Origin: Neocallimastix sp. 'constans'
Lineage: Eukaryota
Reading direction: 5' to 3'
Length of the DNA: 64,000 nt
Assembly (NCBI GenBank): GCA_050613775.1
Contig: JBODTK010000102.1
Span: 124,001-188,000, forward strand
The notes under the pieces were generated by a model. That model was not told the origin of the DNA, searched no databases, and saw nothing but the letters and a program-made list of their open reading frames with translations. Both the position numbers and the translations under genes were made by a program. Numbering within the stretch: position 1 is the first letter of the stretch; each line of letters begins with the position of its first letter. Of this stretch, positions 19,256 to 58,301 are shown piece by piece.

Positions 19256-19270
19256 TATACTATCTACGAC

Positions 19271-28172: not shown

Positions 28173-28223
28173 TAAGGTTTTGTCGTGTTTTGGTTCGTTG
28201 TTTGAAATTAGCTTGTTCTTTAG

Positions 28224-30522: not shown

Positions 30523-30536
30523 TGAGACTCTTAATC
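30523..30536 (-). promoter_or_regulatory. Copia-2 PBS (half-tRNA-Lys type)
   Basis: GATTAAGAGTCTCA on the minus strand, directly abutting the 5' LTR. Confidence 0.9.
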
Positions 30537-32269: not shown

Positions 32270-33670
32270 ATAAATAAAGAATATAATTAGTAGAATATGA
32301 ATATAAAGTACAGATTGAATAAAATAAAATAATATAAAATAAAATAAAATAAATAGTAGAATATGAATATAAAGTACATATTTAATAAGATAAAATAAAA
32401 TAAATAGTAGAATATGAATATAAAGTACATATTTAATAAAATAAAATAAATAGTAGAATGTGAATATAAAGTACATATTTAATAAAATAAAATAAAATAA
32501 ATAGTAGAATGTGAATATAAAGTACATATTTAATAAAATAAAATAAAATAAAATAAAATAAATAGTAGAATATTAAAAATAAAGTACAGATTGAATAAAA
32601 TTAAATAAAATAAAATAAATAGTGAAGTAATATAAAAGAATAAAGCATTAATAAAAATAAAATAAAATAAAATAAATAGTAGAATATGAATATAAAGTAC
32701 ATATTTAATAAAATAAAATAAAATAAAATAAAATAAATAGTAGAATATGAATATAAAGTACATATTTAATAAAATAAAATAAAATAAATAGTAGAATATG
32801 AATATAAAGTACATATTTAATAAAATAAAATAAATAGTAGAATATGAATATAAAGTACATATTTAATAAAATAAAATAAAATAAAATAAAATTAAATAAA
32901 ATAAAATAAATAGTGAAGTAATATAAAAGAATAAAGCATTAATAAAAATAAAATAAAATAAAATAAAATAAAATAAAATAAATAATGAAGAAATATAAAA
33001 GAATAAAGTATTAATAAAAATAAAATAAAATAAAATAAAATAAAATAAAATAAAATAAATAATGAAGTAATATAAAAGAATAAACTATTAATAAAAATAA
33101 AATAAAATAAAATAAAATAAATAGTAGAATATTAAAAATAAAGTACAGATTGAATAAAATAAAATAAAATAAAATAAATAATGAAGTAATATAAAAGAAT
33201 AAAGCATTAATAAAAATAAAATAAAATAAAATAAAATAAAATAAAATAAAATAAATAATGAAGTAATATAAAAGAATAAAGTATTAATAAAAATAAAATA
33301 AAATAAAATAAAATAAATAGTAGAATATTAAAAATAAAGTACAGATTGAATAAAATAAAATAAAATAAAATAAATAATGAAGTAATATAAAAGAATAAAG
33401 CATTAATAAAAATAAAATAAAATAAAATAAAATAAAATAAAATAAATAGTGAAGTAATATAAAAGAATAAAGCATTAATAAAAATAAAATAAAATAAAAT
33501 AAAATAAAATAAAATAAAATAAAATAAAATAAAATAAATAATGAAGTAATATAAAAGAATAAAGTATTAATAAAAATAAAATAAAATAAAATAAAATAAA
33601 TAGTAGAATATTAAAAATAAAGTACAGATTGAATAAAATAAAATAAAATAAAATAAAATAAAATAAATAT
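32270..33670 (+). repeat. Compound minisatellite inside the MULE
   Basis: Three related units of about 35 bp (AAATAGTAGAATATGAATATAAAGTACATATTTAAT; AAATARTGAAGTAATATAAAAGAATAAAGYATTAAT; AAATAGTAGAATATTAAAAATAAAGTACAGATTGAAT) separated by variable (AAAAT)n. Confidence 0.95.
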
Positions 33671-33987
33671 CTATTATTAATTTTTACTAAAGAATATTAA
33701 AGATCAATGTTTTCGAAATGAAAAATTTTTACATTTTTATTATATTCAATTAATAATGTAGTTTAATATTATTGGTAGTTAATAATCTCATTAAATATAA
33801 ATGATTTTTTGCTTTCTAACATATATAATTAAATAAAACATTTTATTTTTAAAAATAAATTGTCTTTAATATTCTTTAATAAAAAAAAATAATAAATATT
33901 TATTTTATTATATATACTTGTACTTTTATAATATTACATTTAATATTTATTTTATTTTATATACTTGTACTTATATTATTACATTCT

Positions 33988-34028
<41 letters not shown>

Positions 34029-34135
34029 AAATAATTGAAAAACTAATTTTTCAAAATTAATATTACGAATAATATTGGATAATTAATATAATAATTATAA
34101 TTATATAATTAAAAAATATTTATAAAAATATAGAA

Positions 34136-35569
34136 ATGGAAGAAAATTTAATTATTGATATAAATGAATCCAACAAAGGAAAAGAACAAATTATTATTAA
34201 TAAAAAATATAAATTTAATTTTTCATATAAAAGAAAAGATAATTCCAAAGTGTATAAATGTACAGAATATAAAAAAATAAATAAATGTAAATCTTTTATT
34301 ATTTTAAATGATAAGAAAGAAATTTTAAAGTATAATAGTTCACATAATCATCCTGAAAATGAATACGATGTATCCCTATCTATAATGAAACATAAAATTA
34401 AAGATGGAATTGAAAAAAGTTCAATTCCTTTTGGTATAAAAATAAAACCCCTATATAATAAAATTTCTAAAGAAATGGGACTTATATGTCCAGAATATAA
34501 TTCAATTAAATCCCAAATATCAAGAAATTTAAATAAAAAACTACCATCCAATGTAACAACATTTGCTGAAATTCCAAGTGAATCTGAATATTATAATACA
34601 AAGCGAGGTGAAAATTTTATGATATTCAAAAATTCTAATTTAATAATTTTTCAATCCCCTTTTCAAGCAAAATTATTTAGGGAATATAATGATGATATAT
34701 TTGTTGATGGTACATTTTTTATCGCCCCTAAATTTAGTTATCAAGTATTTATTACAAGAACTTATGCTAAAGAATTAGATAGTTTTTACACTGCTTCTTT
34801 TGCAATATTAAAAAATAAAGAACAAGAAACATATAAAATGTTATTTGAAATGTTATTTGAAAATTTGAAAAAAAATGCTAATACATGTAACAATAATATT
34901 AGAATTGAACCAAAAAATTTGCATTGTGATTTTGAAAGGGCCATATCTAAAGCAGCAAAAACAATATTTCCTAATACAAATATTAAATATTGCATTTGGC
35001 ATTATAAAAAATCACTAGAAATTAAAAAAAATAAATTATGCTATAATGAAGTAAAAAATAATAATATATTTATTTATTATAAAGCTATTTCAAATTTACC
35101 ATTTATAAATCCTGAATATATATTTGATATTTATGTTATAATTAAAATTAAATCCATTAAAAATAATTATTGTCAATTTTTAAAATTTTTAGAATATTTT
35201 TATAAAACATATTTAATTGATTATGATATGAAAATTTGGAATTATTATAATAATATAGAACATATAACAAACAATGCCTCAGAATCACTCAATAATTATT
35301 TAAATAATTTATTTCCAACAAAACCATCTTTTTATGAATTAATAGATAAATTAAATGAACTTGAACATTTATCATATTATGATTATCAAAGAAAAATAAG
35401 AGGAATTTGGAAAATAAAAAAAAGAGCAATAAATAAAGCTAACGAAATCAGTGTCTTAATTGAACGCTTCAAAAGTATTGAAGCTAAGTTAATTGATGCT
35501 AAATGTGATAGAAATAAAATTATTAATTTGTGGTTTGATTGTTTAACTAATTTAAATAATATAATATAA
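34136..35569 (+). CDS. MULE transposase with N-terminal FLYWCH/WRKY-like zinc finger (477 aa)
   Basis: YKC..CKS..HNHP finger; catalytic motifs FVDGTF, HCDFERA, YCIWH (CxxH) and TNNASESLN. Confidence 0.92.
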   Translation: MEENLIIDINESNKGKEQIIINKKYKFNFSYKRKDNSKVYKCTEYKKINKCKSFIILNDKKEILKYNSSHNHPENEYDVSLSIMKHKIKDGIEKSSIPFGIKIKPLYNKISKEMGLICPEYNSIKSQISRNLNKKLPSNVTTFAEIPSESEYYNTKRGENFMIFKNSNLIIFQSPFQAKLFREYNDDIFVDGTFFIAPKFSYQVFITRTYAKELDSFYTASFAILKNKEQETYKMLFEMLFENLKKNANTCNNNIRIEPKNLHCDFERAISKAAKTIFPNTNIKYCIWHYKKSLEIKKNKLCYNEVKNNNIFIYYKAISNLPFINPEYIFDIYVIIKIKSIKNNYCQFLKFLEYFYKTYLIDYDMKIWNYYNNIEHITNNASESLNNYLNNLFPTKPSFYELIDKLNELEHLSYYDYQRKIRGIWKIKKRAINKANEISVLIERFKSIEAKLIDAKCDRNKIINLWFDCLTNLNNII

Positions 35570-37663
35570 ATATTACTTTATAATAAATAATTAAGAAATG
35601 AGGAATGACCAAATGAAATAATCAGAATTCTGTCATTCAATAATTTAATTTATAAAGCATATTAAATTTATATAGTTTTAATAAATATTCAAATACAATG
35701 TATAATTTATAGTTTTATCATTATAATTATTATTTCGTTTAATAATTTTTTAAAAAAAAAAGAATTATTATTAATAAAATTTATATTTTTAATAACATTT
35801 GTAATTTTATATATTTTTTTTATTAATAAAATTTAAATAAAAAAACTATTATTATTAGTTTTATATTTTTAATAACATTTAAGTAAAAGAATTATTATTA
35901 ATAGCATTTATATTTTTATGTGTTTTTTTTATTAATAACATTTAAGTAAAATAATTAATAATATTTATATTTTTAATAACATTTAAATAAAAGAATTATT
36001 ATTAAAAAAAAAGAATTAAAATCATAAAATCTAACCATTATATGATTTATTTAATTATTCACTTAATAATTAATTTAAAAATTGAAATAACAAAATAATA
36101 CAATAAAATAATATTATGTAGTATAATATAGCTATAGCCACAAATTAATATATATCACGTGAAAAAAATTGGCGTAATGCAACTTCCCCTAAATAACGTT
36201 AATTTAGATCATTTATAAATCATATGATAATTAATCAAGTTATTAATGATTTATTATTTTATTTTTATGAAATTATTAATAAAATAATTTATTAATAATT
36301 AAAGCTTTTATTTCCGTTTTATATCATAACTATTGATTAAAGTTTGAATGATGAGGAAAGTAAAATAAATATTATTATTAATTATTATTTAATTGAAATA
36401 TAAAAGTTCATTAAATTAAGTTTTTGAGACACAAAATTTAAAATTATAAAAGTATATGGAGCATTAAGAAGTTAGGTTGATAAATTGAGTGTTTTACTAA
36501 TTCCTATTTATGAATATTAAAAATTATATAATTATATATACATAGAAATAATCTATATAATTATATTGTTTTGCTTCTTTTAATATAATTAATACTCTAA
36601 TAATAATTGATTATATATAATGACATTCTTTAAAATTAAAAATTTATTGTCATATTTTACTCTTATTAAATTAATCATAATGTATTATAAAAATATGATT
36701 ACCAATTTTAACATAATTTTATATATATTTTACTTTTTATCTTATTACTACTTTAATTTTTATTTTTATGATATTAGTTGACTATATATTTTCAGTTTAA
36801 TATTACTCTTTTTATTTTAATTTTTTTATTTTGTAATTTTATAAAATTATTTTACTTTATATTTTTTATAATTTTTTTTAAATTTTTAATTTAGAAATAA
36901 AGCGAATTTAATTATTTTTATTTATTTGAATTTATTAATTTTCTTTTTATAATTTTTTATATACATTTTGAAGTTCATTCTTGTTTACTAAGTTTTTTTT
37001 TTTTTTTTTTTATTTTTCTCTTTCTGGTGAAATTATAACTATTAATCGGTTAAAATTAATTTCTAAACTTTTTAGTTTATAAGTAATATTTATTTATTTT
37101 TATAATTTTATTTTCAAATTAATTACTTGATTTTTTTAATTTTGCTTATGTTCTAATTTTTTAATAATAGCTAATTCTAAATTTACAGTTTAATATTAGG
37201 TGACTATTTTATAATTTATATTCATAATAATTGATTTATATTTTGCTGAATTTACTAAATATATTTTTATTTAATTATATATGAATTGTAATTTTAATTA
37301 TTTTATTTCATTTTTAAAAATATACTTCATTTATGATTCAAATAAAAGAAATTTCTAGATTTTTAAAAATTATGTTTTTATTTTAAAAAAATAAAATTAA
37401 TACAATTTTTCTTATTATTCCTTAGAAGAATTAATTAACATTTGAATATACTTATTATGTAAATAAAATATTAATTTTTAAAAAAATGAATATTATTTAT
37501 TTCAATTTCAAATTACAATAAATTCTAATTTTGAAATTATGTATTTTAAAATTAAAAATTAATCAATAATGTTATATATAATATAAGAAGATATATATTT
37601 ATTCTTTTTTTATTATAATAAAACTATGACTTTATTTTATTTTTTTTTTTTACTTTACTTCAT

Positions 37664-37897
37664 GCTCAATCTGGAGTGATTGAGACTATTAATCTATCAT
37701 TAATAAGAATATTTTAATTATGAAAATATTATTAACTGAATGTACAATTTTAAACAACTTATTATTATGGTATTTAGTATTAACATAAAATGTGGGTTGT
37801 TGTTATTTGACAAATAGCTTACAAAAGAAATATTAATATAAAAAATTACTATTTAAATTATTATAAATATAAAATTTTTATATTTATATTTCTAACA
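37664..37897 (-). mobile_element. Orphan 5' LTR (37695-37897) with PBS
   Basis: GCTCAATCTGGAGTGATTGAGACTATTAATC abuts an LTR similar to 47844-48052 and 48057-48265. Confidence 0.75.
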
Positions 37898-38509: not shown

Positions 38510-40559
38510 ATTTAAAAATTTGTTCTCTTTAAATAAATTAAAAATTAATTCTAATATTTTTTTTAAGAAAAGTTATTTATTATTTTTAGAAATAAGAATC
38601 TCTTTATTTTATGAAAATATTAGATTTATGTTTTTTTAAAATAATAGTGTACATTTTTATGTTATTTATAGTTAACATAATATGTGACTTATTATTATTT
38701 GTCACATATTTTACATGAAAATATTAAAATATATATTATTTCTCCTTAAATTAATATAATTATAAAATTTATATTTATATTTTTAACATTCCTCCTCTGT
38801 TAAAATATAAATATTGAAGTTTTGTATATATATAATATTAAGGAGTTTTGTGTTATATTTTAATATATATATTTTCAAGTATAAGACCAATAATATATTT
38901 GTGTAACCTAAATAAAATAACTATAAATATTTTATAATATAAAATTCTTCAATAACGATGCCTTTTAATAAAATAGAGGAAATTAGATTTTCATTTTCTA
39001 TAAACATAAATAAATGAACTTTTTACTTTTAACAGATTAAGAGTCTCAATCTCACCAGATTGAGTGAGCATTAAGTTAAGTATTAGAAAATTATATAAAT
39101 AAATTTAACAATTATTTTGAATTAAAGTTATTAATAATATTTTAAATTCTTATTGTAAAACAAATCAATTACAATAATAATTAAAAATATATAAAACTTA
39201 ACATGCACAAATCAACAATTTTGTAATATAAATTTAAAATATTTATAAAACATAAATTTAAAATATTTATGATATATACAAATTTTAATTATTTTTGAAA
39301 ATAAGTATCAATTATTATATATTATTTAATGAATTCATTAAATATTAGGAATAAAAGTAATAAAAAATAAAAATATAAGAATAAGAATAAATATCATTAT
39401 TATCTATACATATTTATATTTATATTACGATAACTAAAAAATAAAAAAAACAGATAAAATATTATAAAAAGAAAATATTTAAAATATATATAGAATAAGA
39501 ATCGGTTTTCATAAAAATAATAATTATAAGATAATTTATAAAAAAAAATAATAAAATACCAAGCTGAATATTGTCAGCGTTATAATAAAGAGCTGAAAAG
39601 TCAGCGCTATTTTAAAAATAGCTAAATATTAACATTATTAATAAAAAAAAAAATATATTATAATTGGATTTTATATTTGAATAATTTGAATAATTAAAAA
39701 TAAAAAACATATTCATAATTATTATATATATATGAAAAAGATTTCATAATTTGTAAGTATGACATTATCACAATGTAATCTTTTAATTGTATTATTAATA
39801 TATTTATTTTAAAAAATTTCAGTTTCTACAATAAAGTTATATATTTTTATAAGAATATAGGCTGTATATTTTTTTAAAAATGTAATTTATATTAATATCG
39901 AACCTAAAATAAAAACTTATAAAAATTAATAAATACAAAAGAATGTTTATAAATAATAAAAATTAATTTGAAAGATTTATACATATCTACATAGAATACA
40001 TATAATAAAAAAAAATATCATTAAATAAAAATAAATTTCTTAAATTTAAAATAAAGAAATAAAAATAAAATATAAACTTATTTTAAAATTTATATTCAAA
40101 GTAATAAAAATTATAATAATAATAATAATAACAATAAATATAAAAAAATATATATTTATAAATAATAAAAAAAAAAAAGCGAAAAGAGAAATATAAATTA
40201 AAAGTGGAAAAATAGTTCAAAATAAATAAATTTATAAAGAATATATATAAAAAGCAATTAATATTAAAAGAAGTATTTATACAAAGCAATAAAAAATTGT
40301 TTATTTATTTTAATTCAAAAAAAAAAAAAAGGTTTTTATATATATATATATTTTTTTTAAATTTTTAATTTAGAGTTTAAAAATCAGTACTTAATAGTTA
40401 ATTAATTAAAAGTCTAATTTTTAAACTATTTTTTTTAGTTAATAATTATTTTATGTTATTTAGTTCTGAAAATAATTGTAATAATAGTAATATTGAAACA
40501 ATTACAAAGGATAAAATAACATAAATTAAATAAGTACTAATTTAAATAATAATTATAAT

Positions 40560-42760
40560 TTAAATCAAAGTTTAACTTCAAAATTAGACAAACAAAACAA
40601 CTTTAAATTTAATCAAAATGCATACCACTTACAGAATCAATTATGGCTTCGTTCTCATTGTAGGACAGATCTAAATAACGTCGATCATGTACAATTTCCA
40701 TTTGAAACTGAAAATGCAAAAAAATTAATACAACAAAAGATCTTAGATAATGTGATCATCGCTCAAAAGATCAAAGAACAAAATCAAGAATTAGCTCATT
40801 TTTTTAGCAAATATTGATGAAAAAGGAAAAATAAATGAAGAAATAGAAAATAAGAACAATGTTTTGCTTTCTCCAATTGATTTAGATTTAATATCCAATA
40901 ATTCAAGTAATTTATTATTAAAAAATAGTGTAAATGTAAACAATAATTTATATATTAATCCAAATGTAAACATTAACAATATCATAAGTATTCCAATTAA
41001 TCCAAAAGTGACCAGTAAAGAAAGCTACAGCACTATCAACAAATGAGCTTTAGAATCAGAAAATACTAAGTTCATAATGACTAATTGGAGTAAGAATATC
41101 TTTATAATCAGTTGAGGAATTTGGAACATCAAAGACTATATCTTTACACTTCATTTGAATTTATTCTGCTAATTATTACCTTCAGAATTTAATTGAGAAC
41201 ATACAGTAGCTTTAACTTGAGTAATATCAGCAAAATCTTTGAAGTATCTGGTTCTGAATTTAAATATGCTACTCTGAAATTTTTTTTTTTTGATAATTTT
41301 CAATTTGTATTTTAAGTTCAGCAAGAAAAATTTGACGAATAATAGAATTAAATAGAGTATCATTTTCATTTTTTAAATAAACTGAATTAATAGGTAATGT
41401 AACGGAATAAAAGAGAATACTATAACTATCTAAATAGTTTGAGTAATAGAATTTTTTGTTCCATCAGTAATATATAATGTTTTCGTTTTAATTGAAATGC
41501 TAGAATATTTGTTATAAATATTCTTAAAGATAAAAACAAATAATCTTTAATATATCTGTAATAATATTATGAAATAAAAGAAAAAAACTAATGGAGATAA
41601 TATTGTCAACAATAATGATAATGACAATAATAATGGCAATATTAATGGTGAAATCGATAATAATAAATCAAAAATTTTAGCAAATGAAAGTACAGCCGAT
41701 ATTACAACTGAAGAAACAAATAATGCTGTTATTATCTCTGTGTATGGTACAAGTGTACTTGACTTAGTTACTATTATTGGATTTATCCTATTAAAAAATC
41801 ATTTATGTAAAACGGTAACATCGATATTTCATACAGTTCATTAAATTATGTTAGTCCAAAACCAAACTATCCAGTAGGTGGATTGCATGATAATTTGACT
41901 AATTCAAATAATGACTTTAAACCTAATTATCAGTTAAGATTTTACAAAATAATTATCAATCTCAAGTTAGTTATTCAATTTCCTTAAGTGATTGTTCATG
42001 TGTCAACATGGAATAAAATTCTGATGTTTTCTAAACCACTGAAAATACTCCAGTTCCATGTTTACCAAGAGATCTACATAGAGATTTACAAAGAGATTCA
42101 CCAAAGGAATCACCACCATATAATAATCAAGAAGATTTACTAATCATTAAACATGTTGTTTAAGAAATTGTTATTAACTCAGAAATGTTTTTAAGTGAAA
42201 CCATAAACTCTAACGCAGTTTCTATTTTTGCTACAACTACTACATTTATTTTAGCTATTAATAAATTTGGTGATCTTACCATCGACAACTCTAATATTAT
42301 TGTAAAAAAGCCAAATACTAATAATGTAAAAATCCAACACCACATCAAGTACTTGAACTTCATGCACATCTTCATGTTCTTCTTGTAATAATTGATCATG
42401 TTCACACAACGGTTCATGAACTTGTTGTTGTATTGCAGGGAATCATCAAGATAGACTACAATATCTACCGATGAATCATCCTTATATTTACTTTCATATG
42501 ATTTAAATAACTTCAAGCCATACTATTCGTTCAATTTTGCAAATAACTCAAATATGGGAGATACCACTCATTGATACTCTGTCATTATTGACAATAACAG
42601 TAATAAAGATTCTGTTGATTACACCGAAACTAATTATGACGATAGTCGTGGAACGACAAATTACTCTGAAACTAATTATAATAGTTGTAGAACAACAGAC
42701 TATAAGGAAACAAAAGTTTAATTGAATTCTTGGTAGACAATGGTGTAGATATTAATAATG
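40560..42760 (+). pseudogene. Decayed coding-like cargo (Asn-rich, one TM-like stretch, Cys-rich stretch); identity unknown
   Basis: Higher GC and broken frames, e.g. QNQLWLRSHCRTDLNNVDHVQFPFETENAKK (about 40630-40720) and AVIISVYGTSVLDLVTIIGFIL (about 41725-41790). Confidence 0.45.
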
Positions 42761-43494
42761 AAAATTAATTTAGGGAAACACAATTATTTTATGCATGTAA
42801 AAGTTGAAATAAAAATTTTGTAGAAATAAAGATTTATTAGAATATCTAGTAATACTTGTAATAGATATAAATAAATAATAATCATAAAAACAAAAAAAAA
42901 ACAAAAAAAAAAAACAAAAAAAAACAAAAACAAAAACAAAAAAAAAAGTTGATTAAAGATATTAATTAAATTTTAAAATTTTTGGTTTTGACTTAGATAT
43001 CAAATTAATTTAGTAAATTTGTATATGATGGGGAAGATTTTCTATCCATTTGGTATCTTTATCATCCTTTACGATTGTACAACAACCATATTCAGTCAAG
43101 GCTATTTCAACATTAGTCTTGTTATTAGGATCTTGATAAACAACTTAATCATAATAACGAATTTGGTTAAACTCAATCGGTTGATTGTAAGATGCAATCA
43201 CCACTTCTGTTGCTTGTAAAATAACATTTATTACTTTTAATATAAACATAACCTTTAATGTCACAGTCATCAGGGTTATCTCTATTGTTTGGAACAAATC
43301 TCATACTAGTATGCTCATTTCTATTATAGTAATCTGAAAAAATACCATTTTAAGTATCTATATCTATGATTCACAATTTATAAACAATCCTTGTAGTTAT
43401 CTTAAATAACTATTTTTTTTTGTTGTAAATCAGCCAAATCATTTTATTCGATATATATTATATAGTATTATACTAAAATTATAATATATTAATA

Positions 43495-43850
43495 TTAAAC
43501 ACCGAATATAATTAAATTGCTTATAATATTTAGTATCACTAGCTTTATTATTGGAGTTATAACGAACATACAAAATACAATGAACACAATTATAATCAAA
43601 AATCCTAGAATACCAAAAAAATTCAAGATTATGTTCAGTGTCAGTTTCCCATTCTGGTTGTTTAGGTAAGATGCATTCTTCATCACAATATCCTTTGCAT
43701 ATTCATCTTCAGTGGTTCAAGGATCTCCTACAAATCTACCACAATGTCCTTCTATATAAAGTTTGATATCTCCGTTTTCATTAAATACACATCTAGTATC
43801 CACACATTTATTTGTAAAGCATTAAATGAGGAATAATTATTTCCGCTGCA
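43495..43850 (-). pseudogene. Cys-rich, C-terminally membrane-anchored protein fragment (cargo, antisense)
   Basis: CFTNKCVDTRCVFNENG..HCGRFVGDP*TTEDE..YCDEEC followed by hydrophobic FGILGFLIIIVFIVFCMFVI. Confidence 0.55.
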
Positions 43851-44789
43851 ACTCTTAATTCAAGTCTAACTTCATAAAAAGCTAGACTTGAAGGGGAGTG
43901 TTAAAATATAAATATTGAAGTTTTGTATATATATAATATTAAGGAGTTTTGTGATATATTTTAATATATATATTTTCAAGTATAAGACCAATAATATATT
44001 TGTGTAACCTAAATAAAATAACTATAAATATTTTATAATATAAAATTCTTCAATAATGATGCCTTTTAATAAAATAGACGAAATTAAATTTTCATTTTCT
44101 ATAAACATAAATAAACGAACTTTTTACTTTTAACATCCTCAAATCTAATTTTGGATAAAAGTTTGACTTGAATAGAAATATAGTGTTTGTATTACAATAC
44201 AAGATAATTGTTTTATTTTAATATGATTATAAAAAAAAATATAAATTTATAATATTTTAAAAGAGTATGAATGACATTACATTATATTTATATTTTTTCA
44301 TTTTTATATTAATATCATATTTTAATAATTCCATTATTTTATTATTTACAATATAATCTATTTTTTCTCTTCTTCTTAGTATGTTTCATTATCACTATTA
44401 ATTTCATCATCATTTTCATCATCTAATTTTAATTTATTGTTATTACTTTCATTATTATATTATTCATATTTTTGTTTCTATACAATCAGTATTTATTGAA
44501 TAATAATCGTGACAATCTCTTAAATCTAATTCATTAAGGAGTGGAATTGGTTTGATATCTAAGTCAACATCAGAAGATTTTAATATTTCATTAATAATAG
44601 TTTAATTTAATACTACTTCAATATCATCATATTTTTATTTTATATTTTCTGCATATCTAATTTCCGTTGAAAGGAAATGTTTTTAAATTTTTACTTTTTT
44701 TTTTATTTATTTATTTTTTTTTTTTTAAAAAAAAATTTTATTAATATATTTTTTATACTTTTTCTCTTTTATTAATTTTATTGTTCATT

Positions 44790-45400
44790 TATTTTTGTTG
44801 TTCCATTAATGGAGTAACAAACCAACAACCTAAACCATTTTTAGAAGCAAAACCATGAACACCAAGCTTTAATGCATCAATTGTCCAATCATCTTTATGA
44901 ATATCTTCACCTATTTTTATTATACAAGTTTCTTTTAGACCTATAACATGACAATTCTTTGTTGTTTAGTGGTTGGTAAATAACGACCAGCATCATCATT
45001 AACTTGTAACCAACTAAATGTATTACTTTTTATTTTTAAAATTAAATAAATTTCACTAAATTGAGTATTGGAATAATTAATTTTATGATCAAGTTTTAAA
45101 GAAAAATGCACATCTTTAGAATCATTAAGAATAGTATATCTAACTTCCATTTCGTATTTAATACATTATCAGTGAAAGAAATTTCAACATTATCATTTTT
45201 TTCTTTGTTATAGAACTTCTTTTGCATGAAAGCCAACTTTTGAACTATTAGTATCAATATACGATCTATTTAAAAATTCTTGATCGTCACTAGTAATCTT
45301 TAATAAAGTAATATTACTATATTAGAAATAAAAACATTAGCGTAGTCATTCTTTAAAATGTTTGAATTATTGTTTTGTATCGAACTGAGAGAAGAAACGA
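44790..45400 (-). pseudogene. Unidentified host-gene fragment inside the outer LTR element
   Basis: ORF 44941-45150 continues past stops into KDDWTIDALKLGVHGFASKNGLGCWFVTP; no TE motifs recognised. Confidence 0.45.
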
Positions 45401-48056
45401 TATAAGTCAAGAAGGTTTCTTATAAATTAATAAATAAAATTTTCATTTTTATTAATGAGTTATGTCGTTCAACGATTGAGTTATATTTTTAACTAATCAT
45501 TTGAAAAAGAATAAGAGTGAACCGTTCAAATCTTTCTTAGAGTTCATTCGTTCCATCTTTTTTAAAAAGGAATTTGCAAAAAGTTTTATGTTAAATAAAT
45601 ATGGAGGATTCTTTCTATTTTCTCATTTATTTTTTTTTCATTGATTGATTTTTAAGTATTTTTCATTTGGTGATTACTAAAAAAAAAATACGGTTCTTCT
45701 AATTATACTTTATATTCTACAATACAACAGATATATCATTTTTTAAAATTTAAATTTATCTATCAGTGGAATACTTATTTTGCTTTATAGTTCTTTTTAA
45801 AGTTTAAATTTACTTTAAGATGACAAGACCACATATTTCTAACTAGAACTACAAAAAAATATATTTGCTAATTCTTAAAACCCTTCAGTAGATGTATTGA
45901 TTTCTTTTGTCATAAACTTAAACTAAGTATATAAAACTATTTTTAAATATTTTAAGATGTTTAATTTAACATAAAATTACAAATTATATAATGAATTTAT
46001 TCCTGTTGTAATTAATTCAAATTTTCGTTTTTAAAAGATAATTCCTTAATATTGACCATCTCAATTGCAATAACAACTTCAATGTAAAACTTCATTTTTA
46101 AATAAGCACTTAATATTGGCAACTTTAATTTCATTTTCAATAACAGATGTCGAGGATTGTGATATTCAAAAAGTTACTTATCTATTAATAATGGATATTG
46201 AGTAAATAAATATTTATTATTTATAAATCATTTTGTGGCTGCATTATAATTAAAAATATTATTAATAAAATAAATATTTTTGTTGTAGATTGAGTAATCC
46301 AAATTTTTGCTTCCAAAAAGTGACAATTCTTATCGGTATCCATATAGATCATCTTTGTTTTCAAAAGAGAGATTCTTAACATCGACAATTTCAATATTTT
46401 TTTGCTAAAACCATCTTCCCCTGATCATGTTATTTCAAACTTTTATTTTTATTATTTAAAATCTTCTAGGAATTTATGCATTTACATGTTTCTATTTTAT
46501 TTACAATTTCTTAATTCTTTTCAATATTTTTAATGTGTTTTACATTTATTCTATAATAATTCTTTTTAATTTTATTATTTTTCAAATAATTAAAAAACAA
46601 ATAATGGTTTATTTTAAAAAAATCATATTTAACACAATCAATTTATCAAATAAAATTTATTTTGAATATGGAAATTGCATCACGTTGAAAATATAAACAT
46701 CATTGAATTCATAATTATAAATAATTTCTTATAGATTTTAAGATAAATTAAAAAAACTTAAAAATATAATTAATCCTATAAATTTTTATAATGATATTTT
46801 CAAAGAATATTGTAAATTCTAAATATCAATTATCAACAAGTAAATCTTTCATTAAAGTTCATTTTTAAAAATGTTTTTTCAAAATTTTAAGAAATAATTT
46901 TAGTTAATTTTTTTTTTTTGAATCATTAACATTCATTTGATACATTTGATTTGCTTTGTTAAAAAATTTAAATAGATATTATTTATTAAAATTTAGTATT
47001 ATAATTAATTATATAATTAATAGATCAAGTTTAATTTGTTTTATTTTAATTATGAAACTTTAATTAATATTTCATATTGATAAATTGATTTAAAAAAAAA
47101 TTGCATTTTAAATTTTAATTGGTAAGACAAATATTATATATTAAAGTTTGATAATGTTTAATTCTGTTGGCTCTTGATTTATCAATAAATATAACTTATT
47201 AAATTTAAAATTCTCATTTGAATTTTTATTTATATTTGACTTTAAAAAATTGTAATTTTTATTACATTATGTGTTATAATACGAAACTTTATTAAATAAA
47301 GTATTGAAAATATTTAATTTATTAATAATTTTGAATTAATAAAATTCTAATTATTACTTTTCTTCAATTTATTAATTTTTACTTATTGATTTGTTCCATA
47401 ATTTCTTTTTAATGTATTTAATAAAATATGTATAACATTATTTATTTATAATTTTATTTTATAAAGAAAAAACTAGTTATTAATTTTTTATTATTATTTT
47501 AATTAAATTTTACTTTTATATTAATATTATTTATAATTTCAAATTTACTTTAATATATCATCAGTTGACTATTAATTTTTCATCTTGATGATATTAATTT
47601 TATTTTATTTTTAATTATTTTTATTTTTTATTTTTTTTTATAATATCGGCTGACTATAATATCTTTTCAGCTCAATATGTATATTATTTTTTAAATTCAT
47701 ATATCATTTTTCATATCGGTTGACTAATGTTTTTAGCTCGATATATATATATTATTAATAAATAGATCTATAATATAAATTATACTTATCTTTTCAAGCC
47801 TTTCATGTCTTTGTTCAATCTGGTAAGACTGAGACTCTTAATTTATTAGAAATAAGAATCTCTTTATTTTATGAAAATATTAGAATCATTCTTTTTTAAA
47901 ATAATAATTTACATTTTTATATTATATATAGTTAACATAATATATGACTTATTATTACTATTGGTTACATATTTTACATGAATATATAAAAATATATATT
48001 ATTTCTCCTTAAATTAATATAATTATAAAATTTTATATTTATATTTTTAACAATTA

Positions 48057-51000
48057 TGTGAAAAGTATAAATCTCTTTTCTTATTATATAAGAATAAAGA
48101 ATAGTATGTGTACATAATTTTATACTTTTTTATGGTATTTATAGTAAACATAATATGTGGCTTTTTGTTACTATTGGTCACATATCTTATACTACTATAT
48201 TGATTTATATAACATTACTCCTTTAATTAATATAACTATAAATCTTTATATTTTTGTTTCTAACATTCCCCCTCAAATCTGACTTTGGGTGAAAGTTAGA
48301 GTTGAAGAGAAATATTGCAAATGTATTACTATATAAAATAATATTTTATTTTTAATAATAATAATACAAATAACATATTATAAAGTACATGAAAAAGATT
48401 TATTTTATTTTTATTTGTAAACTAAAGAAATTATTTTTATATATTTTAGATTCTAATGTTTCCCCTTACTTTCAAATTGAATTGGAGTTATTTTTTTATT
48501 ATTATTATTATTTATTAATCTTTCTTTACTTATATTATTATTATGCTTTTTATTTTATTTTATTATTATTATTAATTTTTATTTATATGAATTACTTTCT
48601 GGGAAATATTTTATTGTTTGATGAAAGAAAATATTCATAGAATCATACATAGATTGAAGGTAATTTGGTATATCAGCGTTATCCTTAGCTTCTAATAATT
48701 CAATATTTTTAATAACTTTTTCATATAATGATTCATATTTATTCTTCTTTATTTTATAAGATTGTTCATATTCCCTTAATAATGAGGTAGCATGTCTACA
48801 TTCTTGAATGCCATTAATTTCAGTGCTTTATCTTTATTTTGTTTGAGCAATCATTTGAATAGTAATATCCATTTCAGTACGAACATTATTATAATTGTAA
48901 ATAGAATCTTCGGCATCACGAATAGCTTTATCTAAGAAAGTTTTTAGCCATTCATGGAAATTTTCCATAGCTGGTCAGTATAAATAATCAATATCTTCAG
49001 AACTTGAACTTAAAGAATAACTAACAAGATTTAACCTTTTTTTTTTTTTTTTATAAAATAACTTCATCTCCTTTTAATTTTGCATCTTTAGATACAAAGT
49101 AAAATTGCTTTTGTTCGTTCATAGTAGTTTTTATACAATTAATCATCTTTTTAATATTGTCTTTGGTTGTTTGATATATTTCTTCAATCTATTAAGTATA
49201 TCAATAATTGTATCAACCTTTGGATCAACAGTTTTAACTGGTTAGAAAAAGCCAAACTGAGCATTAACTTGTTCTTTAAAAGTTTGATTAAAGCAAGCTG
49301 AAAATAAATAAAAAAATTTACAAAACTATAACAATATATAATTTATAATATTGGTTTATTGTTGATTATAACATTTATACTAATATAATTTTTTTTTTTT
49401 TTTTACTAATTATATATAATAAAATTTAATTCATTTGATAAAATGCTGTATTTGTCATCATGTATTACTAGAATATCTCTATTAAATTAATTATTATTTA
49501 TATGAAATAAATATAACATTGTTTCAAAATCTACAACGCATTTGTCATTTATTTGTTAATTTAAAGTAATATCTTTTAAATAATAATAAATTGTGAAGGA
49601 TAAACGTAACTTTTTATTTTCTATAATATTAAAATACCATTGTGAAGATTCATCGGATGAATGAGTTAATTTCATAATATATCTTTCTCAAAAAATCTTT
49701 TATTGGTAAATGTATTTATTGGTTATAAAATACCTTCAAATTTAATCATAGGTTTTCTGGTGTTAACGATCTTATTTTTAATAGCATTTAAATCTCCTAC
49801 TTTTTTTTATATATAAATATATATATAATTCCCATTTATATTTAGATGTTAATCATTGATTTGAAGCACCAAAAAATTATATTATCAGTAATTTTTGTGT
49901 TTTTCTAAAAATATTTTTATTCTTCATTGTTTTCATATGATGCGGTAATCACAAATCAATATTGGATTATTAGAATATTTTTTATAAGGTTAGTATCATC
50001 TTTTAAAGATTACATATATTTCTTTCATGCCATAAGATTTCTATCATATTTGGATATTTATTTATAATTTACATACTTAATTTTTATATATTAATTATTT
50101 AAATTTTCTCCTTTAGTATTTAATAAAAAGATTCTTTTAGTGCTTCTTTATTATTTAATTGTTTTAATTTATGAAAGTTTTTATTTGATTCACAAATAAC
50201 AAATTATTCTTTTATTTTTAAGATGTTTAGAATGAATTTTATTTACAGTAATACATTTTTCAATATTTTTACTCTTTTTTTTTTTTTAACGAATGATTTA
50301 CGAATATTTGGAGAATAATAAATAATTCAAATAATATATTTTAAATTATTTTATATAGATTATCTAAATGTAAACTTCCCTATTATTGTTATTGATATAT
50401 ATAAATGGGTTTTATTTGAATAAATAAGTCATTAAAAAAATATATTACAGGTTTCGAGATTTAACAAAAATTAGATTAATAAATCAATAAATGGTAAATT
50501 AGATTTTTATAAATATATATATATTATAAATAATATAATTTTTTTGAAAAAATTTTAAATTTTTATTAAAATTGATGAATTGGATTAAATATTATTAATT
50601 AAAGTTTAGCAAAAATAATTATATTTATATTATTGATTGAATTTAATTTAATTTTAATTTAATAAATCATTAATATTATTTTTAATAATGATATAATTGG
50701 ATAAACAGATTATTTGTAATTGATAATTCTTAGTCTTAATAACTTAAAATGACTATTATTTTAAATTTACTTATTTAAAACTTCACTAGTTAGACTATTA
50801 TTTTTATTTTTATTTTCCATTATTTTAAATTTAGCTAATCTAGTTGACAATCATTTTATAGTTAATTATTGTCAAAAATATTATGTTAAGAAACACTCAA
50901 ATAAGTTATAATAAACACAATAATAAATATATATGGATTAGTAGTTTTTAGAAAAATATTTTTTTATAACAGTATAAATTATTTTTATTCTCTTTTTGTA

Positions 51001-51833
51001 TAAGATATTATTTTTTTATAAAATAATAATTCCATGATTTTTATACTTTTTATTTTGAATATTAATACAAGTAATTGGTCATTATTTATATTAAAGATAG
51101 ATTAATTAAATTAATCATTATTTTGACAATTATTTACAACTTAGATAAACTAATCAACAATTATTTTTATTTTTATTGTTAATCAACCTAGCTAGTTGAC
51201 AATTATTTTTATTTTATTATCAATTATTCACAACTTAGCTAGTTGACATTTATTTTTTATTTTCATTAATTCTCAACTTAGATAGACTAGTTGACTTTTT
51301 ATTTTATTTTAATATTTTCTTTTTATCTAATAATATATATATGTATTTATATCATTTTTTTATTTTTAGAAAATTAATAATAACTTTGACATATTACAAT
51401 AAGTATTTTATTTTAAATTTTATATCCTTAACATTCTCACAATTGTTCTGTAATATTTTCTTATAGATATTGGTTATTACGTTTTGTTTCTATAATAAAT
51501 TTTATAAAAATAATAAAAATATATTTTTATTAGTTTGATTATAAATGATAAAATGATTTTATATTTTATATATTTCAACTTATCTTTATTGATAGATCAA
51601 CTGAAGAGTTGAAACTCTTAATCTGTGAAAAGTATTAATCTCTTTTTTTTATTATATTAGAATAAAAAATAGTATGTGTACATGATTTTATACTTTTTTA
51701 TGGTATTTATAGTAAACATAATATGTGGCTTTTTGTTACTATTGGTCACATATCTTACACTAATATATTAATTTATATAATATTACTCCTTTAATTAATA
51801 TAACTATAAATCTTTATATTTTTGTTTCTAACA
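48057..51833 (-). mobile_element. Non-autonomous LTR element carrying an arfaptin-like fragment
   Basis: TG..CA LTRs at 48057-48265 and 51624-51833. PPT at 48266-48274, PBS at 51610-51623. No TSD found and no gag/pol motifs seen. Confidence 0.88.
48660..49297 (-). pseudogene. Arfaptin/ICA69-like AH (BAR) domain gene fragment
   Basis: KTVDPKVDTIIDIL; MENFHEWLKTFLDKAIRDAEDSIYNYNNVRTEMD; KKNKYESLYEKVIKNIELLEAK. These resemble AH-domain helices as I recall them. Stops and frameshifts are present. Confidence 0.65.
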
Positions 51834-54062
51834 GAAATAATTAATTCTTTAATGTTGGATAAATTTATTTCTGGAATCGCTCTTTTAATATATTTGCTGC
51901 GGTTATTCCATATTGAAAACTGAAATACATTAATCCATTTTAAATTTTCTGGTAGGCGTCTATTTTATATGCATATTTTAGAACTGTCACTAATTTCCGA
52001 ATCAATTTTTGCTATTTCATTGAATAAATTTCGAAAGTTTGTTATGAATTACGATATGTCCTTATTATTAAATTTTAAAATTTCGATTTTGTTTGTTAAT
52101 TCGATTTTTCTTTGCTCCTTACTTTTGATGAACGATTCTTTTAGGAGCTTCCAGATTTCGTAGGCTGACTTTTCGTTTCCATCAATAATTGACTGAGTTT
52201 GTTCATCAAGGCTATTAATTATAATCCATTATGTCGTAATATCATTATCAATGTCGTTTATGGTGGTATTTTTTTCATATACGAAAGTATCATTGAATTT
52301 GTCTTCGATGTACTCATTAGTATTTCCTTTTATATCTTTCTTTTTTAATTTTTTAATAACAGAATAAGTATGTATTTAGTGAGTTTATTTATATTTAAAA
52401 GATATAACATATTCCTCCTCCATGTTATATAATTTTCTCTATTTAATTCGGTAACTCTATTAAAGTTTTCCGAATAATTAAAAATGATTGTATTCCGAAT
52501 ATTATTATTATTGTGATGATTGGTTGTGGTTGAGATTGAGATTGATTTTGGATTTGGATTTGATTTTGAGTTGAATTTTGACATAGATTATGAGAGTTTC
52601 TTCTTTTCATTTTGAAATAATTTAAATTTTATTGTTAAATATTTAATTTGGTTAAATTTTTTATTATTTGAGTATAAAGTAAATAATTTGGTTATTATAA
52701 GAATAAAGTGAGGAATTTTTTTTTTATTTATAGTAATTTTTAATATAAAATTATATTATTATTTAATAAGTTATTATATTTATGTTCATGGTTTATATTA
52801 AAAGTAAATTAGTTTTTATAGTGTGATTAAATTTAATAATTTATTTATAAACAACATAAATATTATTACTATTATTAGTATTATTAATTTCATTTATAAT
52901 TAATTTATATAAATTAATTACTTATAGTTTTATTGGTTTCTATTTTAGTGTATCAATTTTGGTTTAAATAACTTGTTTAAATGATTATTATTGACTTTCA
53001 TTAATATTGTTCTTTTATTTAGTATGACTCACTTTTATAAATATAATTTTATATTAAAATGTTATTTATTTTTATTGTTTAAATCAAAAGATAATTTTTT
53101 ACAGTTTAAACTACTGGTAATATATATATTTTATTATTTCAACTTAAATAAAACATTGGATGACATTGGTTTATATTATTTTATTTATTAATATATTGTC
53201 AGTTGACATTAATTTTAATTGTTTTCAACTTTATTATATATTTGAAATTATAATTTATATTAATTTTATTTTTAATGTAATCAGTTGATTTAAATTTATA
53301 TTATATTTTGATTTAATATCTATGAATATCAGATGACATGAGTTTTGAAATTTTTCATCTTAATTTAAATTTATACGTAATTTATATTTAGATATATGTG
53401 ATGAATGCTTCAATAATTTCATCTAGATATATTTTCTTTTCTCTTTTTTTAATAATTTATTAACATTTTATTATTTTTCAACTTGACTATATTAATTTAT
53501 TATTAGTGGATTTTTAGTTATTTATTTTCATCTCAATATTTATATATTAATTGACATAGTATTTATTATATTAATTAAATTTAATTAAATAGTTATTTAT
53601 ATTTATTTAATAACATTCCCCATTGATCTCCTTACTAACCAAATTATTTTGTACTTTTGTGTAGTTACATGAGTTTTTATTTGGTGTTTCTTTATTTAAT
53701 TATATATATAGTAATATATATTAAAAGGTAAAATAAAAAATTAGTATTTTTATATAAATTTTAATAAATATTTATAATATATGTTATATTTAATCTTAGA
53801 TTTTATTTATGTTCAACTGGAGAGTTGAGACTCTTAATCTTTTAAAATATAAAAATGGAAAAGTATTTAATTTTAGTAATATTTTATTTTATTTTAGTTA
53901 TGTTCATACTTGATATTATTTATTCAGTAAAATTTACATCCTTTTATACTTTTCTTTAATATATAATATTATTAACATATTCATTATAACTATTTATTTA
54001 ATTTATATTTAATATAAATAATGTCATTTGTATATTAAAAAGTCTATTTCTTTATTTTAACA
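51834..54062 (-). mobile_element. Truncated Copia-2-related element: 5' LTR (53840-54062), PBS (53826-53839), leader and gag pseudogene (51834-52584)
   Basis: IIFNYSENFNRVTELNRENYITWRRNMLYLL aligns with Copia-2 Gag (ITFNYSENFNRVIELSTENYPSWRTNILYLL). It is cut at the LTR ending 51833. Confidence 0.85.
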
Positions 54063-54684
54063 GTTAATTTGAAAAATAATTATTTTTTCAAATATGATTT
54101 AAAAATCAAACATTATAAATTTTTAAATAAAAAATTAAATATTATATAATATTTTTTATTTAAGTTTTCTATTTTATTTAAAAATAAATAATATACATTT
54201 TAAAGAGTTTCTATTAAATTTAATAATTTTTAAAAATATATTGATTTAATAAATAAATAAATAATTAATCTCTTGTAAAACACAAAAAAAAATAAAATAA
54301 TAAAAAATTATATATATTAATTTTTTTTAATTATTTTTAATAGTATCTAAGTATTTTTATGGAATTTATAATTAATTAATCAATATCAATTAAATAATTG
54401 ATAAATTTTTAAAGTAGTTTCATTTATTTCTATTTGAAGATGTTTGTAATATATGAAAATTTAACCTGTTATAACTCAAATATTAAATGTTATTTTTTTT
54501 TATAAATTAAATTATTTATTAAAAATTTTCATTTTAAATTAATTACATCAAATGTTAAACAAAATTATTAAATTTTATAAATATATATATATTTAAAGAT
54601 TATTATTTTTTTATTTTGTTAAATCTAAGTTATAGTTTAAATAAATTTATAATAAATAAATTTTACATAAGTAATTTTTGTTCA

Positions 54685-55461
54685 ATGTCACTATTAAAAT
54701 TTTTATTACTATTATTTATATATATAAATAATTTATTTTTAATAGAATGTTCATTACCAATTAAAATATCTGTTATTATACCTGTTTATAATACCGAACC
54801 TTACCTAAGAAGATCTATACAATCTGTGCTTGATCAGACATTAAAAGAAATAGAAATAATATGTATTGATGATGGTTCTACAGATAATTCATTAAATATT
54901 TTAAATGAATTCAAAAAAATAGATAATAGGATTACAGTAATACATTTTAAAGAAAACAAAGGACCATCCATTTGTAGAAATACTGGTATTAATATTGCCA
55001 ATGGTGAATTTGTTGGTTTTACTGATAGTGATGATTATGTTGATAAACGATACTTTGAAAACTTATATAAATACAGTAAAGATAATGATATTGTAATAGG
55101 TACTTTTGTAAGAAGTACAAATGATACTGAAGATTATATTCTTCATAAAAAAATAAAGAAAATACAAGGATATGTATGGAATAGTATTTTTAGGAGAAAA
55201 TTTTTAGATATCAACAATCTAAGATTTCCAACAAATATAAGATTTAAAGAAGATGAAATATTTAGAATTGAATGTTACAAACATGATCCTAAATTATTTG
55301 AAACTCCAGATGAAGGAATATATTATTATTATAAACAACGAGAAGGAACATTATGTAATTATAAAGAACGATATATGAAAAATTTATCAAAAAAAATTTA
55401 TAAACAATCTAAAAGAAATGAAAAAGCAAGAAAAAGAAAAACATTAAATGAAAATCAATAA
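54685..55461 (+). CDS. Glycosyltransferase family 2 protein, bacterial-type, with hydrophobic N-terminal signal/anchor
   Basis: ISVIIPVYNTEPYL..IDDGSTDNS..RNTGI..FTDSDD (DxD). Intronless; first ATG at 54685. Confidence 0.93.
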   Translation: MSLLKFLLLLFIYINNLFLIECSLPIKISVIIPVYNTEPYLRRSIQSVLDQTLKEIEIICIDDGSTDNSLNILNEFKKIDNRITVIHFKENKGPSICRNTGINIANGEFVGFTDSDDYVDKRYFENLYKYSKDNDIVIGTFVRSTNDTEDYILHKKIKKIQGYVWNSIFRRKFLDINNLRFPTNIRFKEDEIFRIECYKHDPKLFETPDEGIYYYYKQREGTLCNYKERYMKNLSKKIYKQSKRNEKARKRKTLNENQ

Positions 55462-56099
55462 ATTATTAAATTTTTAAAATTATATATGTATACTTTTATA
55501 AATTTTTATTCATAATTAAATAATTTATATAATTATAAAATAAAATTTTAATTTTATTATTTAAATACAGTGATAATATAATTTAATTTATTATGCATAT
55601 TATAAATAATTTTAAAATAAAATAGATTTATTTATAAATTGTTTTTTTAATATATAATAAATGAAACGTTTTAATGTAATGAAAAAAAAAAATTTTTTTT
55701 TTAAATTATTTATTAAAATTAAAATGTAATAGAGGAAATTATTTTATAATTAATTTACTTAAACGTTAAAATTTTTAAGTTTGCACTATAGAAATTATTC
55801 CAATAGTATTGTGTTTTAGTATAGGTGCAATTGTTTTTTTTGTAATCGATACAGTATTCTTAACCTTTTATTACTAGTTTTTACTTTTCATCATTATTAT
55901 AATTGAAAACCAGTAAGGATAAAATTATACTAGATTTTGGTAGCATTATTCTAACATTTATAAAGAAATTTAGATTTTCAATATTGTTAAGCTTTATTTT
56001 TACTTAATTTTTATTTTTATTATATATTTTATATGCATTTTATAATTATAAGATTCATTAAGAGTATTATTTAGTTTTATGCTTATTCATCTTAATTTT

Positions 56100-56470
56100 A
56101 AATATATTAAAAATATTCATATACCTTAAAGAAACAATAAAATATTGTTTGAATTTTTCCAGAGAGCAAGAAAAAAAAGTTTTCATTGATGCTGATTATG
56201 AATAGAACCTGAAAAAAAGAAAACGTCCTAAATCATTTTTAATAACTGAATAAAATACTACAATTAATTGGTGTTCAAAGGTCTAACATTGTATTTCCAT
56301 TTCTATAGCTGAGTCTGAACTATAACCTTAATTAATAATAAAAACATTTATCTAAATTTACATAACGAATTTCATTATAAAATTTTTAAAATAATATTTA
56401 TAATAAATCTACAATTTTATGTACGAAAAAACAATCAATTAATCATTAATCTAAGAATATGGATTAAGTA
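56100..56470 (+). pseudogene. Copia RNase H remnant
   Basis: VFIDADY, INWCSK, ISIAESE and QSINH*SKNMD in broken frames. Confidence 0.65.
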
Positions 56471-57515: not shown

Positions 57516-58301
57516 TTAGAGTTCGTTCTTATTAATTATCCTTTCATCTTTTTTATTTTTTCTAGCATTCTTTTTTTTCTTTTTGAATTCCTCATAGGCA
57601 TCTCTATTATACCTTTTTAGTTGTTTTTTAGAGAAGTTTGAAAGTGAACCGGTTCTCCTCTTATAATAATAATAAATTCCAACATCTGGTAACTTTAAAA
57701 TCCTCGGTTGATATTCATAAGCTTCCATTCTAAATTTTCTATCACTTCCTCTTTTCATTGTTTCATCATATCTAATATGGTATTTATTTAAAAAATCTTT
57801 TCTCCAAATTGAATCAAAAATTGAAGCAGGTAATTCCATTTTTAATTCTTTATAATATTTTGAAGTGTTTGTACCTCCTAAGAATTTTCCCACAACTATA
57901 TCATAATCTGTTGAATTTGCTATTAAATTTTCATAAAACCTTTTATCAATAAAATCATCGCTATCAATAAATCCAATAAAATCACCTTCAGCTATGTCCA
58001 TTCCAGCATTTCTTGCAGTACTAACACCTTTATTAATATTAAATTGAATGAGTTTAATTCTATTATCTGTTTTCCTATAATTTTCTAATATTTGCAAGGA
58101 ATTATCTGTTGATGCGTCATCGATAAATATTAATTCATAATCTTTGAAAGTTTGATTCAAAATAGAATTAATACAACGATCTAAATAAGGACCTGTATTA
58201 AATACTGGTACTACAATCGATAAAGGTAACGCATCAATGTTCAATATAAATAATTCATAATATATAGTAATATTTATTAATAATTCATAAATAAATTTCA
58301 T
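57516..58301 (-). CDS. Glycosyltransferase family 2 protein, paralog of 54685-55461
   Basis: LSIVVPVFNTGPYL..IDDASTDNS..ARNAGM..FIDSDD; shared GIYYYYK motif. Intronless, hydrophobic N-terminus, ends KNEL. Confidence 0.94.
   Translation of the reverse strand: MKFIYELLINITIYYELFILNIDALPLSIVVPVFNTGPYLDRCINSILNQTFKDYELIFIDDASTDNSLQILENYRKTDNRIKLIQFNINKGVSTARNAGMDIAEGDFIGFIDSDDFIDKRFYENLIANSTDYDIVVGKFLGGTNTSKYYKELKMELPASIFDSIWRKDFLNKYHIRYDETMKRGSDRKFRMEAYEYQPRILKLPDVGIYYYYKRRTGSLSNFSKKQLKRYNRDAYEEFKKKKKNARKNKKDERIINKNEL

Follow-up and report, generated by a model that had tools for sequence, protein, structure and literature searches.

Three retrotransposon units bounded by long terminal repeats (LTRs) occupy positions 38584..51833 of a 64,000-nucleotide stretch of Neocallimastix sp. 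'constans' (contig JBODTK010000102.1, forward-strand positions 124,001 to 188,000), here called the window and numbered from its first letter. One unit, inner (+), is nested within a second, outer (-), and a third (-) lies beside the latter. With good confidence we interpret them as non-autonomous LTR retrotransposons that carry broken pieces of host genes, probably captured from RNA, and that are likely copied by Copia enzymes acting in trans. An earlier note, made from the letters alone, had proposed gene-carrying non-autonomous LTR elements here; as a whole this is supported and largely right, more strongly for the third and inner elements and more weakly for the outer one. As it also stated, the interiors hold different decayed coding fragments: arfaptin in the third element, a PL4 rhamnogalacturonan lyase with an unnamed 'gene Y' in the outer, and ankyrin, PI-PLC and Cys-rich gene pieces in the inner. 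Intact parents exist elsewhere for the LTR-enclosed transcript cargo (arfaptin, PLC and PL4), multi-gene chimeras are present, and secondary copies have joints in common. Judging from sequence comparison, the third and inner elements likely represent multi-copy families that spread after damage to their cargo. The cargo is most likely a decaying passenger, with no working product in evidence.

Each unit has paired direct LTRs at the places given in the earlier note. Those of the inner element (5' at 38798..39034, 3' at 43899..44135, both +) have TG..CA ends and, as the note had counted, 5 mismatches per 237 nucleotides (nt); their Kimura two-parameter distance (K2P) of 0.021 is comparable to the LTR divergence of the window's two Copia elements, Copia-1 and Copia-2 (0.027 each). 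The third element (3' LTR at 48057..48265, 5' LTR at 51624..51833, both -) also has TG..CA ends, with a K2P of 0.045 (9 mismatches and 1 gap). The outer pair (3' at 38584..38788, 5' at 47844..48052, both -) reaches 0.072 (14 mismatches and 4 gap columns), and its ends, TG..TA and TG..AA, depart from TG..CA. A polypurine tract (PPT) stands immediately before every 3' LTR, as the note had observed: 43890..43898 (+) in the inner element, 48266..48274 (-) in the third and 38789..38797 (-) in the outer, where the tract, recognized from its sequence, is interrupted by the inner insertion. Likewise, a primer binding site (PBS) immediately follows each 5' LTR (inner 39035..39048, +; outer 47830..47843, -; third 51610..51623, -). 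Interiors measure 4864 nt (inner), 3712 nt (outer) and 3358 nt (third), and whole elements 3.8-5.3 kb.

Of the target site duplications (TSDs) that had been claimed for two units, the one of the inner element is convincing. It reads TCCTC (left copy 38793-38797, right copy 44136-44140), lies inside the outer PPT and has a local frequency of only about 1.7e-4 per position. Because of this TSD and the position within the outer PPT, we conclude that the inner element was inserted as one 5.3-kb piece. The outer TSD, ATTAT (left 38579..38583, right 48053-48057), is weak: at about 1e-2 per position this 5-mer is common, and the first base of the third element's LTR is also part of the right copy. 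No TSD was found at the ends of the third element; next to it on the right stands a truncated Copia gag of which the remainder is missing, and this would fit a later deletion on the left. The same absence, together with the adjoining truncated gag, might suggest that two solo LTRs or two unrelated elements happen to surround single-copy host DNA. That explanation is largely refuted already and has next to no probability left: PBS and PPT lie inside the LTRs in one orientation per unit, the outer and third elements have a 3' tail in common (44141..44242, -, with 77% identity to 48271-48378), the interiors consist of broken chimeras whose parents occur intact elsewhere, and two other arfaptin copies run into the PPT.

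The interiors lack recognizable retroelement genes. Eighteen six-frame Pfam scans of the interiors returned no retroelement family and no transposase, helicase or reverse transcriptase (RT) match, and tblastn with the window's own gag/pol proteins gave no match to them at E<0.01. Both routes did detect the decayed gag at 51842-52590, which served as positive control (Pfam E 4e-12; tblastn E 1e-45). The possibility that the interiors are decayed gag/pol is rejected on these grounds, and the absence of gag/pol noted earlier is confirmed by the hidden Markov model search. Pfam scanning of the window as a whole left out region 1-18970.

The clearest cargo is that of the third element, whose interior matches the Pfam Arfaptin (AH) domain with an E of 2e-9. 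Positions 48488..49417 (-, sense to the element) are a processed mRNA copy of the Neocallimastix AH/arfaptin paralogue P0037, to which it is closer than to the other of two intact paralogues in Neocallimastix. Over 710 nt it is 87.3% identical to the parent mRNA with 2 gaps, and it includes pieces of the parent's untranslated regions (5' UTR at 49417-49300, 3' UTR at 48584-48488). The idea that the sequence upstream of the coding sequence (CDS) is a retained intron was rejected, as it is 5' UTR. Two internal deletions (one took the start codon region, the other the C-terminus and stop), one frameshift caused by a 1-nt deletion and at least four stops have disabled the copy. Substitutions are distributed 27/25/27 over the codon positions, with a dN/dS of about 0.57. 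A further interior stretch (49514..49914, -) is common by sequence match to other arfaptin-carrying copies.

The arfaptin cargo also appears to have lost a parental intron. Gene calls P0041 and P0042, on contigs up to 11.7 kb, stop and start at codon 92/93 of the parent, with residues compatible with a phase-1 GT-AG intron, whereas mRNA-like contigs and the window cargo are both uninterrupted there. This contrast points to loss of one intron, albeit indirectly. The parent gene, intact and expressed, is present as a single open frame on contigs L010-L012.

Relatives of this cargo are numerous. Among 210 candidates, 31 matched, including 12 full-length proteins and 17 broken gene models (12 from N. 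lanati and 5 from N. 'constans'). In a tree of 23 rows, from which P0004-7, P0009, P0020, P0024, P0026, P0028, P0030, P0031, P0049 and P0051 were left out, the window falls together with 14 broken copies into one clade beside the parent (support 100/99), and within it groups with 8 copies (support 99/98). Lesions were compared over 21 broken models, with P0020 excluded as a cut canonical protein. Ten of the 21 end at the same 3' deletion as the window, nine have an upstream non-arfaptin piece in common, and two continue into a Copia PPT and LTR start. Five use the frame that is opened only by the window's 1-nt deletion and seven retain the parent frame; four of the five frameshift sharers are found on four different N. 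lanati scaffolds. None of the 13 intact arfaptin proteins shows any of these lesions or joints. Taken together, the common lesions, the joints and the tree suggest a single arfaptin capture followed by stepwise spread, partly after disabling lesions had occurred. A metagenome scan yielded 5 loci among 465 pattern matches and no element copies; the five are contiguous full-length frames, three of the parent arfaptin and two of the other paralogue.

Some further arfaptin copies deviate from this pattern: P0031 and P0051 are joined to different upstream sequence, and P0027 to a gag-like downstream part. Elsewhere in the window, a stretch at 18763-18906 is 79% alike to the broken model P0022 in the latter's C-terminal part and probably belongs to another repeat.

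In the inner element, an AT-rich leader passes at about 40500 into coding-like decayed sequence (39049..42696, +) for which no Pfam or Atlas match was obtained. It is followed by an ankyrin-repeat fragment (42697..42828, +; Pfam Ank_2 E 0.003, PDB ankyrin matches to E 8e-13), an A-rich tract (about 42885-42947) and a short piece (42960..43010, +) with 85% identity to the outer gene Y piece (44545-44596). Two pieces then lie antisense to the element. The first (43001..43512, -) derives from a secreted PI-PLC-X family gene, of which it has the 5' UTR, the start codon and an N-terminal part; its signal peptide is deleted, it is frameshifted and it ends before the catalytic domain. Here too, a retained intron upstream of the CDS was considered and rejected in favour of 5' UTR. 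The second (43513..43835, -) is attributed to a Cys-rich host gene of no named family, based on an RNA contig of a near relative and on loose ends; it is common to 4 gene models and gave no Pfam or Atlas match.

Contig depths for 42960-44200, taken from three DNA-type runs and one RNA run, indicate that this cargo is repeated. Window-like contigs reach depths of 279-463 in run X1 (parent-like 40), 89-248 in run X3 (parent-like 22-38) and 104-224 in run X4 (parent-like 21-34). The inner cargo thus occurs at roughly 3-12 times the depth of parent-like contigs, which we read only as the presence of several copies. Parent-like contigs diverge from the window at three places: 43004, where they continue into the PLC domain, 43333-43337 (the signal peptide) and 43568. 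The contig of depth 463 spans the signal-peptide deletion with no gaps against the window, whereas the parent-like contig (depth 40) has 48 differences and 7 gap letters, so that deletion and frameshift can be regarded as family traits. Among 30 related proteins, the chimera of Cys-rich gene and PLC recurs in 4 (N. lanati accounts for three of them, each on a separate scaffold), the 3' joint is read through in 3, the signal peptide is retained in 8, the shifted stretch is present in 17 and the parent's stretch in 5. A joint 43512-43835 at a depth of 319 points weakly, with 30 letters on its short side, to a sister form that lacks the Cys-rich piece. The RNA run contains cargo-like and LTR-like contigs, although such contigs do not demonstrate a transcript and the run may contain DNA. 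With the recurrent chimera and depth of the inner element and the 17 broken models of the third, the view that the interiors are not single-copy holds for these two units.

The outer element is less well supported. After its 3' tail, it contains a piece of gene Y (44473..44600, -, sense), which matches the C-terminal part of P0063/P0067, and codons 1-218 of a PL4 rhamnogalacturonan lyase (44801..45446, -, sense) with stops and frameshifts. In the two best-aligned segments the PL4 piece is 58-75% identical to intact Neocallimastix enzymes. Among fungi the rhamnogalacturonan lyase domain is described as unique to gut fungi (PMC6712302). The remaining interior (45447..47829, -), coding-like pieces followed by an AT-rich leader, has no convincing match, and a PDB search with one outer frame returned nothing. 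Of 34 related proteins, 2 repeat the order from PL4 to gene Y, with 84% over 64 aa, and another 2 have a shifted reading like that of the window. An open reading frame (ORF) identical to the outer one is found on 14 contigs, which likely derive from this very locus. From these sequence matches, the loaded outer element is likely to have been independently mobile.

It might be argued that each unit was inserted only once and that duplication, segmental or of the whole genome, produced the extra copies. Neighbouring gene models do occur on the same scaffolds, the arfaptin and PL4/gene-Y copies are close together in N. 'constans', and no flanks were seen; the argument is strongest for the outer element. 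Nonetheless, the cargo of the inner element has the elevated depth reported above, even though this unit sits in the outer PPT, has a rare TSD of its own and carries the youngest LTRs; and the arfaptin copies, on at least 7 N. lanati scaffolds that differ in length, divide into nested subfamilies, some of which have the frameshift and others not. We therefore regard duplication as the sole source of the copies as quite improbable.

The PBS provides the main clue to the replication machinery. The earlier note had called it Lys-type; a match to tRNA-Lys(CUU) is indeed present in all three units, but of the internal, anticodon-loop type instead of the 3'-CCA type. The sites match GATTAAGAGTCTCA at 14/14, 13/14 and 13/14 positions (inner, outer and third) and represent the complement of the tRNA-Lys(CUU) anticodon arm. 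The window has 7 occurrences of the motif (0.06 expected from 100 shuffles): in the three cargo units, the two Copias and two further truncated elements. Of 26 loci retrieved with the complementary motif, 5 are tRNA-Lys(CUU) genes, with the host's own not among them, and in 4 of 4 such genes examined the match ends 6 nt past the first anticodon base. Within the window, tRNA gene calling found none, and an Rfam search gave a single chance match. A PBS scan of viral contigs gave 9 loci, of which the 3 checked for LTRs and gag/pol had none; the remaining 6, on phage-sized contigs, were scanned for tRNAs only. The candidate helper Copias carry ATTAAGAGTCT, the same PBS as the fungal FunCo1 Copias, a group reported almost only from Pezizomycotina (PMC5445492). 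The likeness to that clade concerns the primer type only. In a survey of plants, half-tRNA priming was restricted to Copia lineages (PMC6317226), and fungal Helenus elements are described with anticodon-loop PBSs in common with Copias (PMC10886601).

A short hairpin-like sequence follows the PBS at 39049-39063, 47815-47829, 51595-51609 and 53812-53825. It is found in the cargo elements and in the fourth and fifth elements described below, is absent from Copia-1/2 and partly resembles the complement of a tRNA D-arm.

With Copia-1 (18970-24153, +, TSD TTAAT) and Copia-2 (25261-30727, -), the cargo units have the PBS, the PPT and the TG start in common, and the PPTs of the outer and third elements are nearly identical to that of Copia-2. 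The helper is therefore likely to be a Copia of this primer class, although these two copies themselves are not established as the helper. The note's assumption that they are autonomous does not hold: both are near-intact with full domain sets, yet both are broken, Copia-1 into three overlapping ORFs and Copia-2 by a TGA that lies in frame between its protease and integrase regions. Among the LTRs, those of the outer, third and fifth elements form one family (z 14-32), to which the inner LTR is weakly related (z 3-7). The fifth element (37660-37897, -) consists of a 5' LTR of this family and a PBS, with no partner LTR in the window. The fourth (51842-54062, -) has a 5' LTR, the same PBS, a long leader and a decayed Copia gag, which stops beside the third element's 5' LTR with the remainder missing.

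As for the mechanism, the pieces were likely taken up from host RNA during reverse transcription, presumably by template switching inside a Copia particle and with a cleaved tRNA-Lys(CUU) half as probable primer. Repeated rounds of deletion and further capture could then build the multi-gene chimeras, and copies likely reached new sites through a Copia helper with the same primer, which would supply its enzymes in trans. The intron loss in the arfaptin copy would point to an RNA step, or alternatively to DNA capture followed by splicing of the element's transcript. The latter leads to a possible but less favoured scenario, in which the cargo entered a master element as DNA (by break repair, or as a nested Helitron, MULE or LINE-made retrocopy) and lost its sense-strand introns during spread. 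This is compatible with our preferred explanation and differs in the capture step only. The antisense pieces and the A-rich tract after the ankyrin piece speak for it, as does a nearby Mutator-like element (MULE) transposase gene (34109-35569, +; open, 486 aa, with FLYWCH and MULE transposase domains). Against it, the interiors have no transposase, helicase or RT match, and the arfaptin cargo is confined to its parent's transcript, UTRs included. Inverted repeats occur only at the level expected by chance in AT-rich DNA, and a nested DNA transposon with terminal inverted repeats was rejected because none rose above this noise.

Several observations weigh against capture from RNA and spread by Copia enzymes, in addition to the missing TSD of the third element. 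The dispersal rests on gene models and short contigs, with the LTRs, flanks and TSDs of the other copies outside view. Several copies are close together on one scaffold, and block duplication explains part of the count. In N. 'constans' the PL4/gene-Y model (P0063) is 12 accessions from an arfaptin copy (P0017) on one scaffold; this mirrors the adjacency of the outer and third elements and may reflect a duplicate of the whole block. Contig depth is not copy number, and parent-like contigs are only assumed to be single-copy. The parent arfaptin intron was deduced from split gene calls and not seen as DNA, and antisense PLC and Cys-rich pieces are not expected from simple template switching to mRNA. 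Moreover, 21-28% of each interior is assigned, and 72-79% has no assigned source. The note's view that the inner element moved after its cargo had decayed is borne out by deletions, chimeric joints and frameshifts common to other copies, but not by the stop at 43010-43012: it is absent from all contig depth in three of four runs and from about half in the fourth, is largely private to the inner copy and would thus be later than its move. Finally, mobilization in trans by Copia-1/2-type helpers agrees with the common PBS, PPT and TG start, but the LTR bodies show no kinship to Copia-1/2 (z<=1.8), and the gag-bearing fourth element was rejected as progenitor by leader similarity (z 2.9 against 3.5 for a control stretch).

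The remainder of the window is strongly AT-rich as well (7-35% G+C over the window), and the nearest named relatives of its proteins are from Neocallimastix, Piromyces and Anaeromyces, which places the host among the anaerobic gut fungi, most likely in Neocallimastix. Two inverted decayed regions, 3920-6101 and 9069-11275, are 66% identical; their translations contain motifs that we take to be Gypsy-type RT. A long AT-rich tandem array covers 31900-33700. Three uninterrupted glycosyltransferase-like ORFs are found at 54559-55461, 57516-58313 and 59671-61503 (Pfam scans covered the first and third, and both match GT2), and an isolated Copia pol fragment lies between them at 56098-56319.

That three of three neighbouring non-autonomous units contain different host cargo suggests a process that is common in this genome. 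In public Neocallimastix assemblies, 17 arfaptin-derived and several PLC- and PL4-derived 'hypothetical proteins' have the look of element cargo; annotated as genes, they would inflate the counts of genes and enzymes. Should some chimeras be functional, they would provide a testable route to modular carbohydrate-active enzymes (CAZymes). A genome-wide shuffling machine, in which Copia-dependent cargo elements form many families that take up, combine and multiply fragments of expressed genes (those for secreted plant-wall enzymes among them), with some products surviving as working modular enzymes, and help to explain the enlarged, domain-shuffled CAZyme set of Neocallimastix, seems improbable to us at present.

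Shuffling of host gene fragments is best known from DNA transposons: Pack-MULEs and gene-carrying Helitrons combine fragments of several host genes, mostly decayed. Pack-MULEs have long terminal inverted repeats and TSDs of 8-11 bp, whereas the units described here have LTRs, PBS, PPT and, where a TSD was found, one of 5 bp. Large retrotransposon derivatives (LARDs) have a long conserved non-coding interior; the interiors of our three units differ and contain host coding pieces. For rice and sorghum, a survey of captured genes reportedly exists. With LARDs and TRIMs (miniature retrotransposons with terminal repeats), including the fungal Helenus as described in PMC10886601, the units have in common an LTR-PBS-PPT-LTR structure without coding capacity and, in the inner unit, a 5-bp TSD, and as in Helenus the anticodon-loop PBS shared with Copias is a clue to the helper. 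They differ from the elements of that account in their length of 3.8-5.3 kb, their host-gene interiors and the absence of a called tRNA in the window.

The closest counterparts are the LTR-flanked partial retrocopies of animals reported by Tan et al. 2016 (PMC5131818), with multi-gene chimeras and secondary non-autonomous spread; the same paper cites maize Bs1 and induced cases in yeast. Here as there, partial copies of host mRNA lie between LTR termini with at least two genes joined, and secondary copies with joints in common point to non-autonomous spread. Compared with the cases as presented in that source, ours is natural and from an early-diverging fungus, with cargo sets that differ among three adjacent units, no remnant of gag/pol found, about ten copies of an already disabled cargo, cargo that is partly antisense and no sign of a working chimeric protein. 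In the literature on gut fungi we found no report of gene-carrying LTR elements; most subscription journals were outside this search, and supplements of genome papers may mention some. Overall, the process is LTR-mediated retroposition of the Bs1 kind, known in plants and animals. The present case extends natural LTR-mediated gene capture and secondary amplification to an early-diverging fungal lineage, in which traceable parents and lesions in common allow the order of events to be read.

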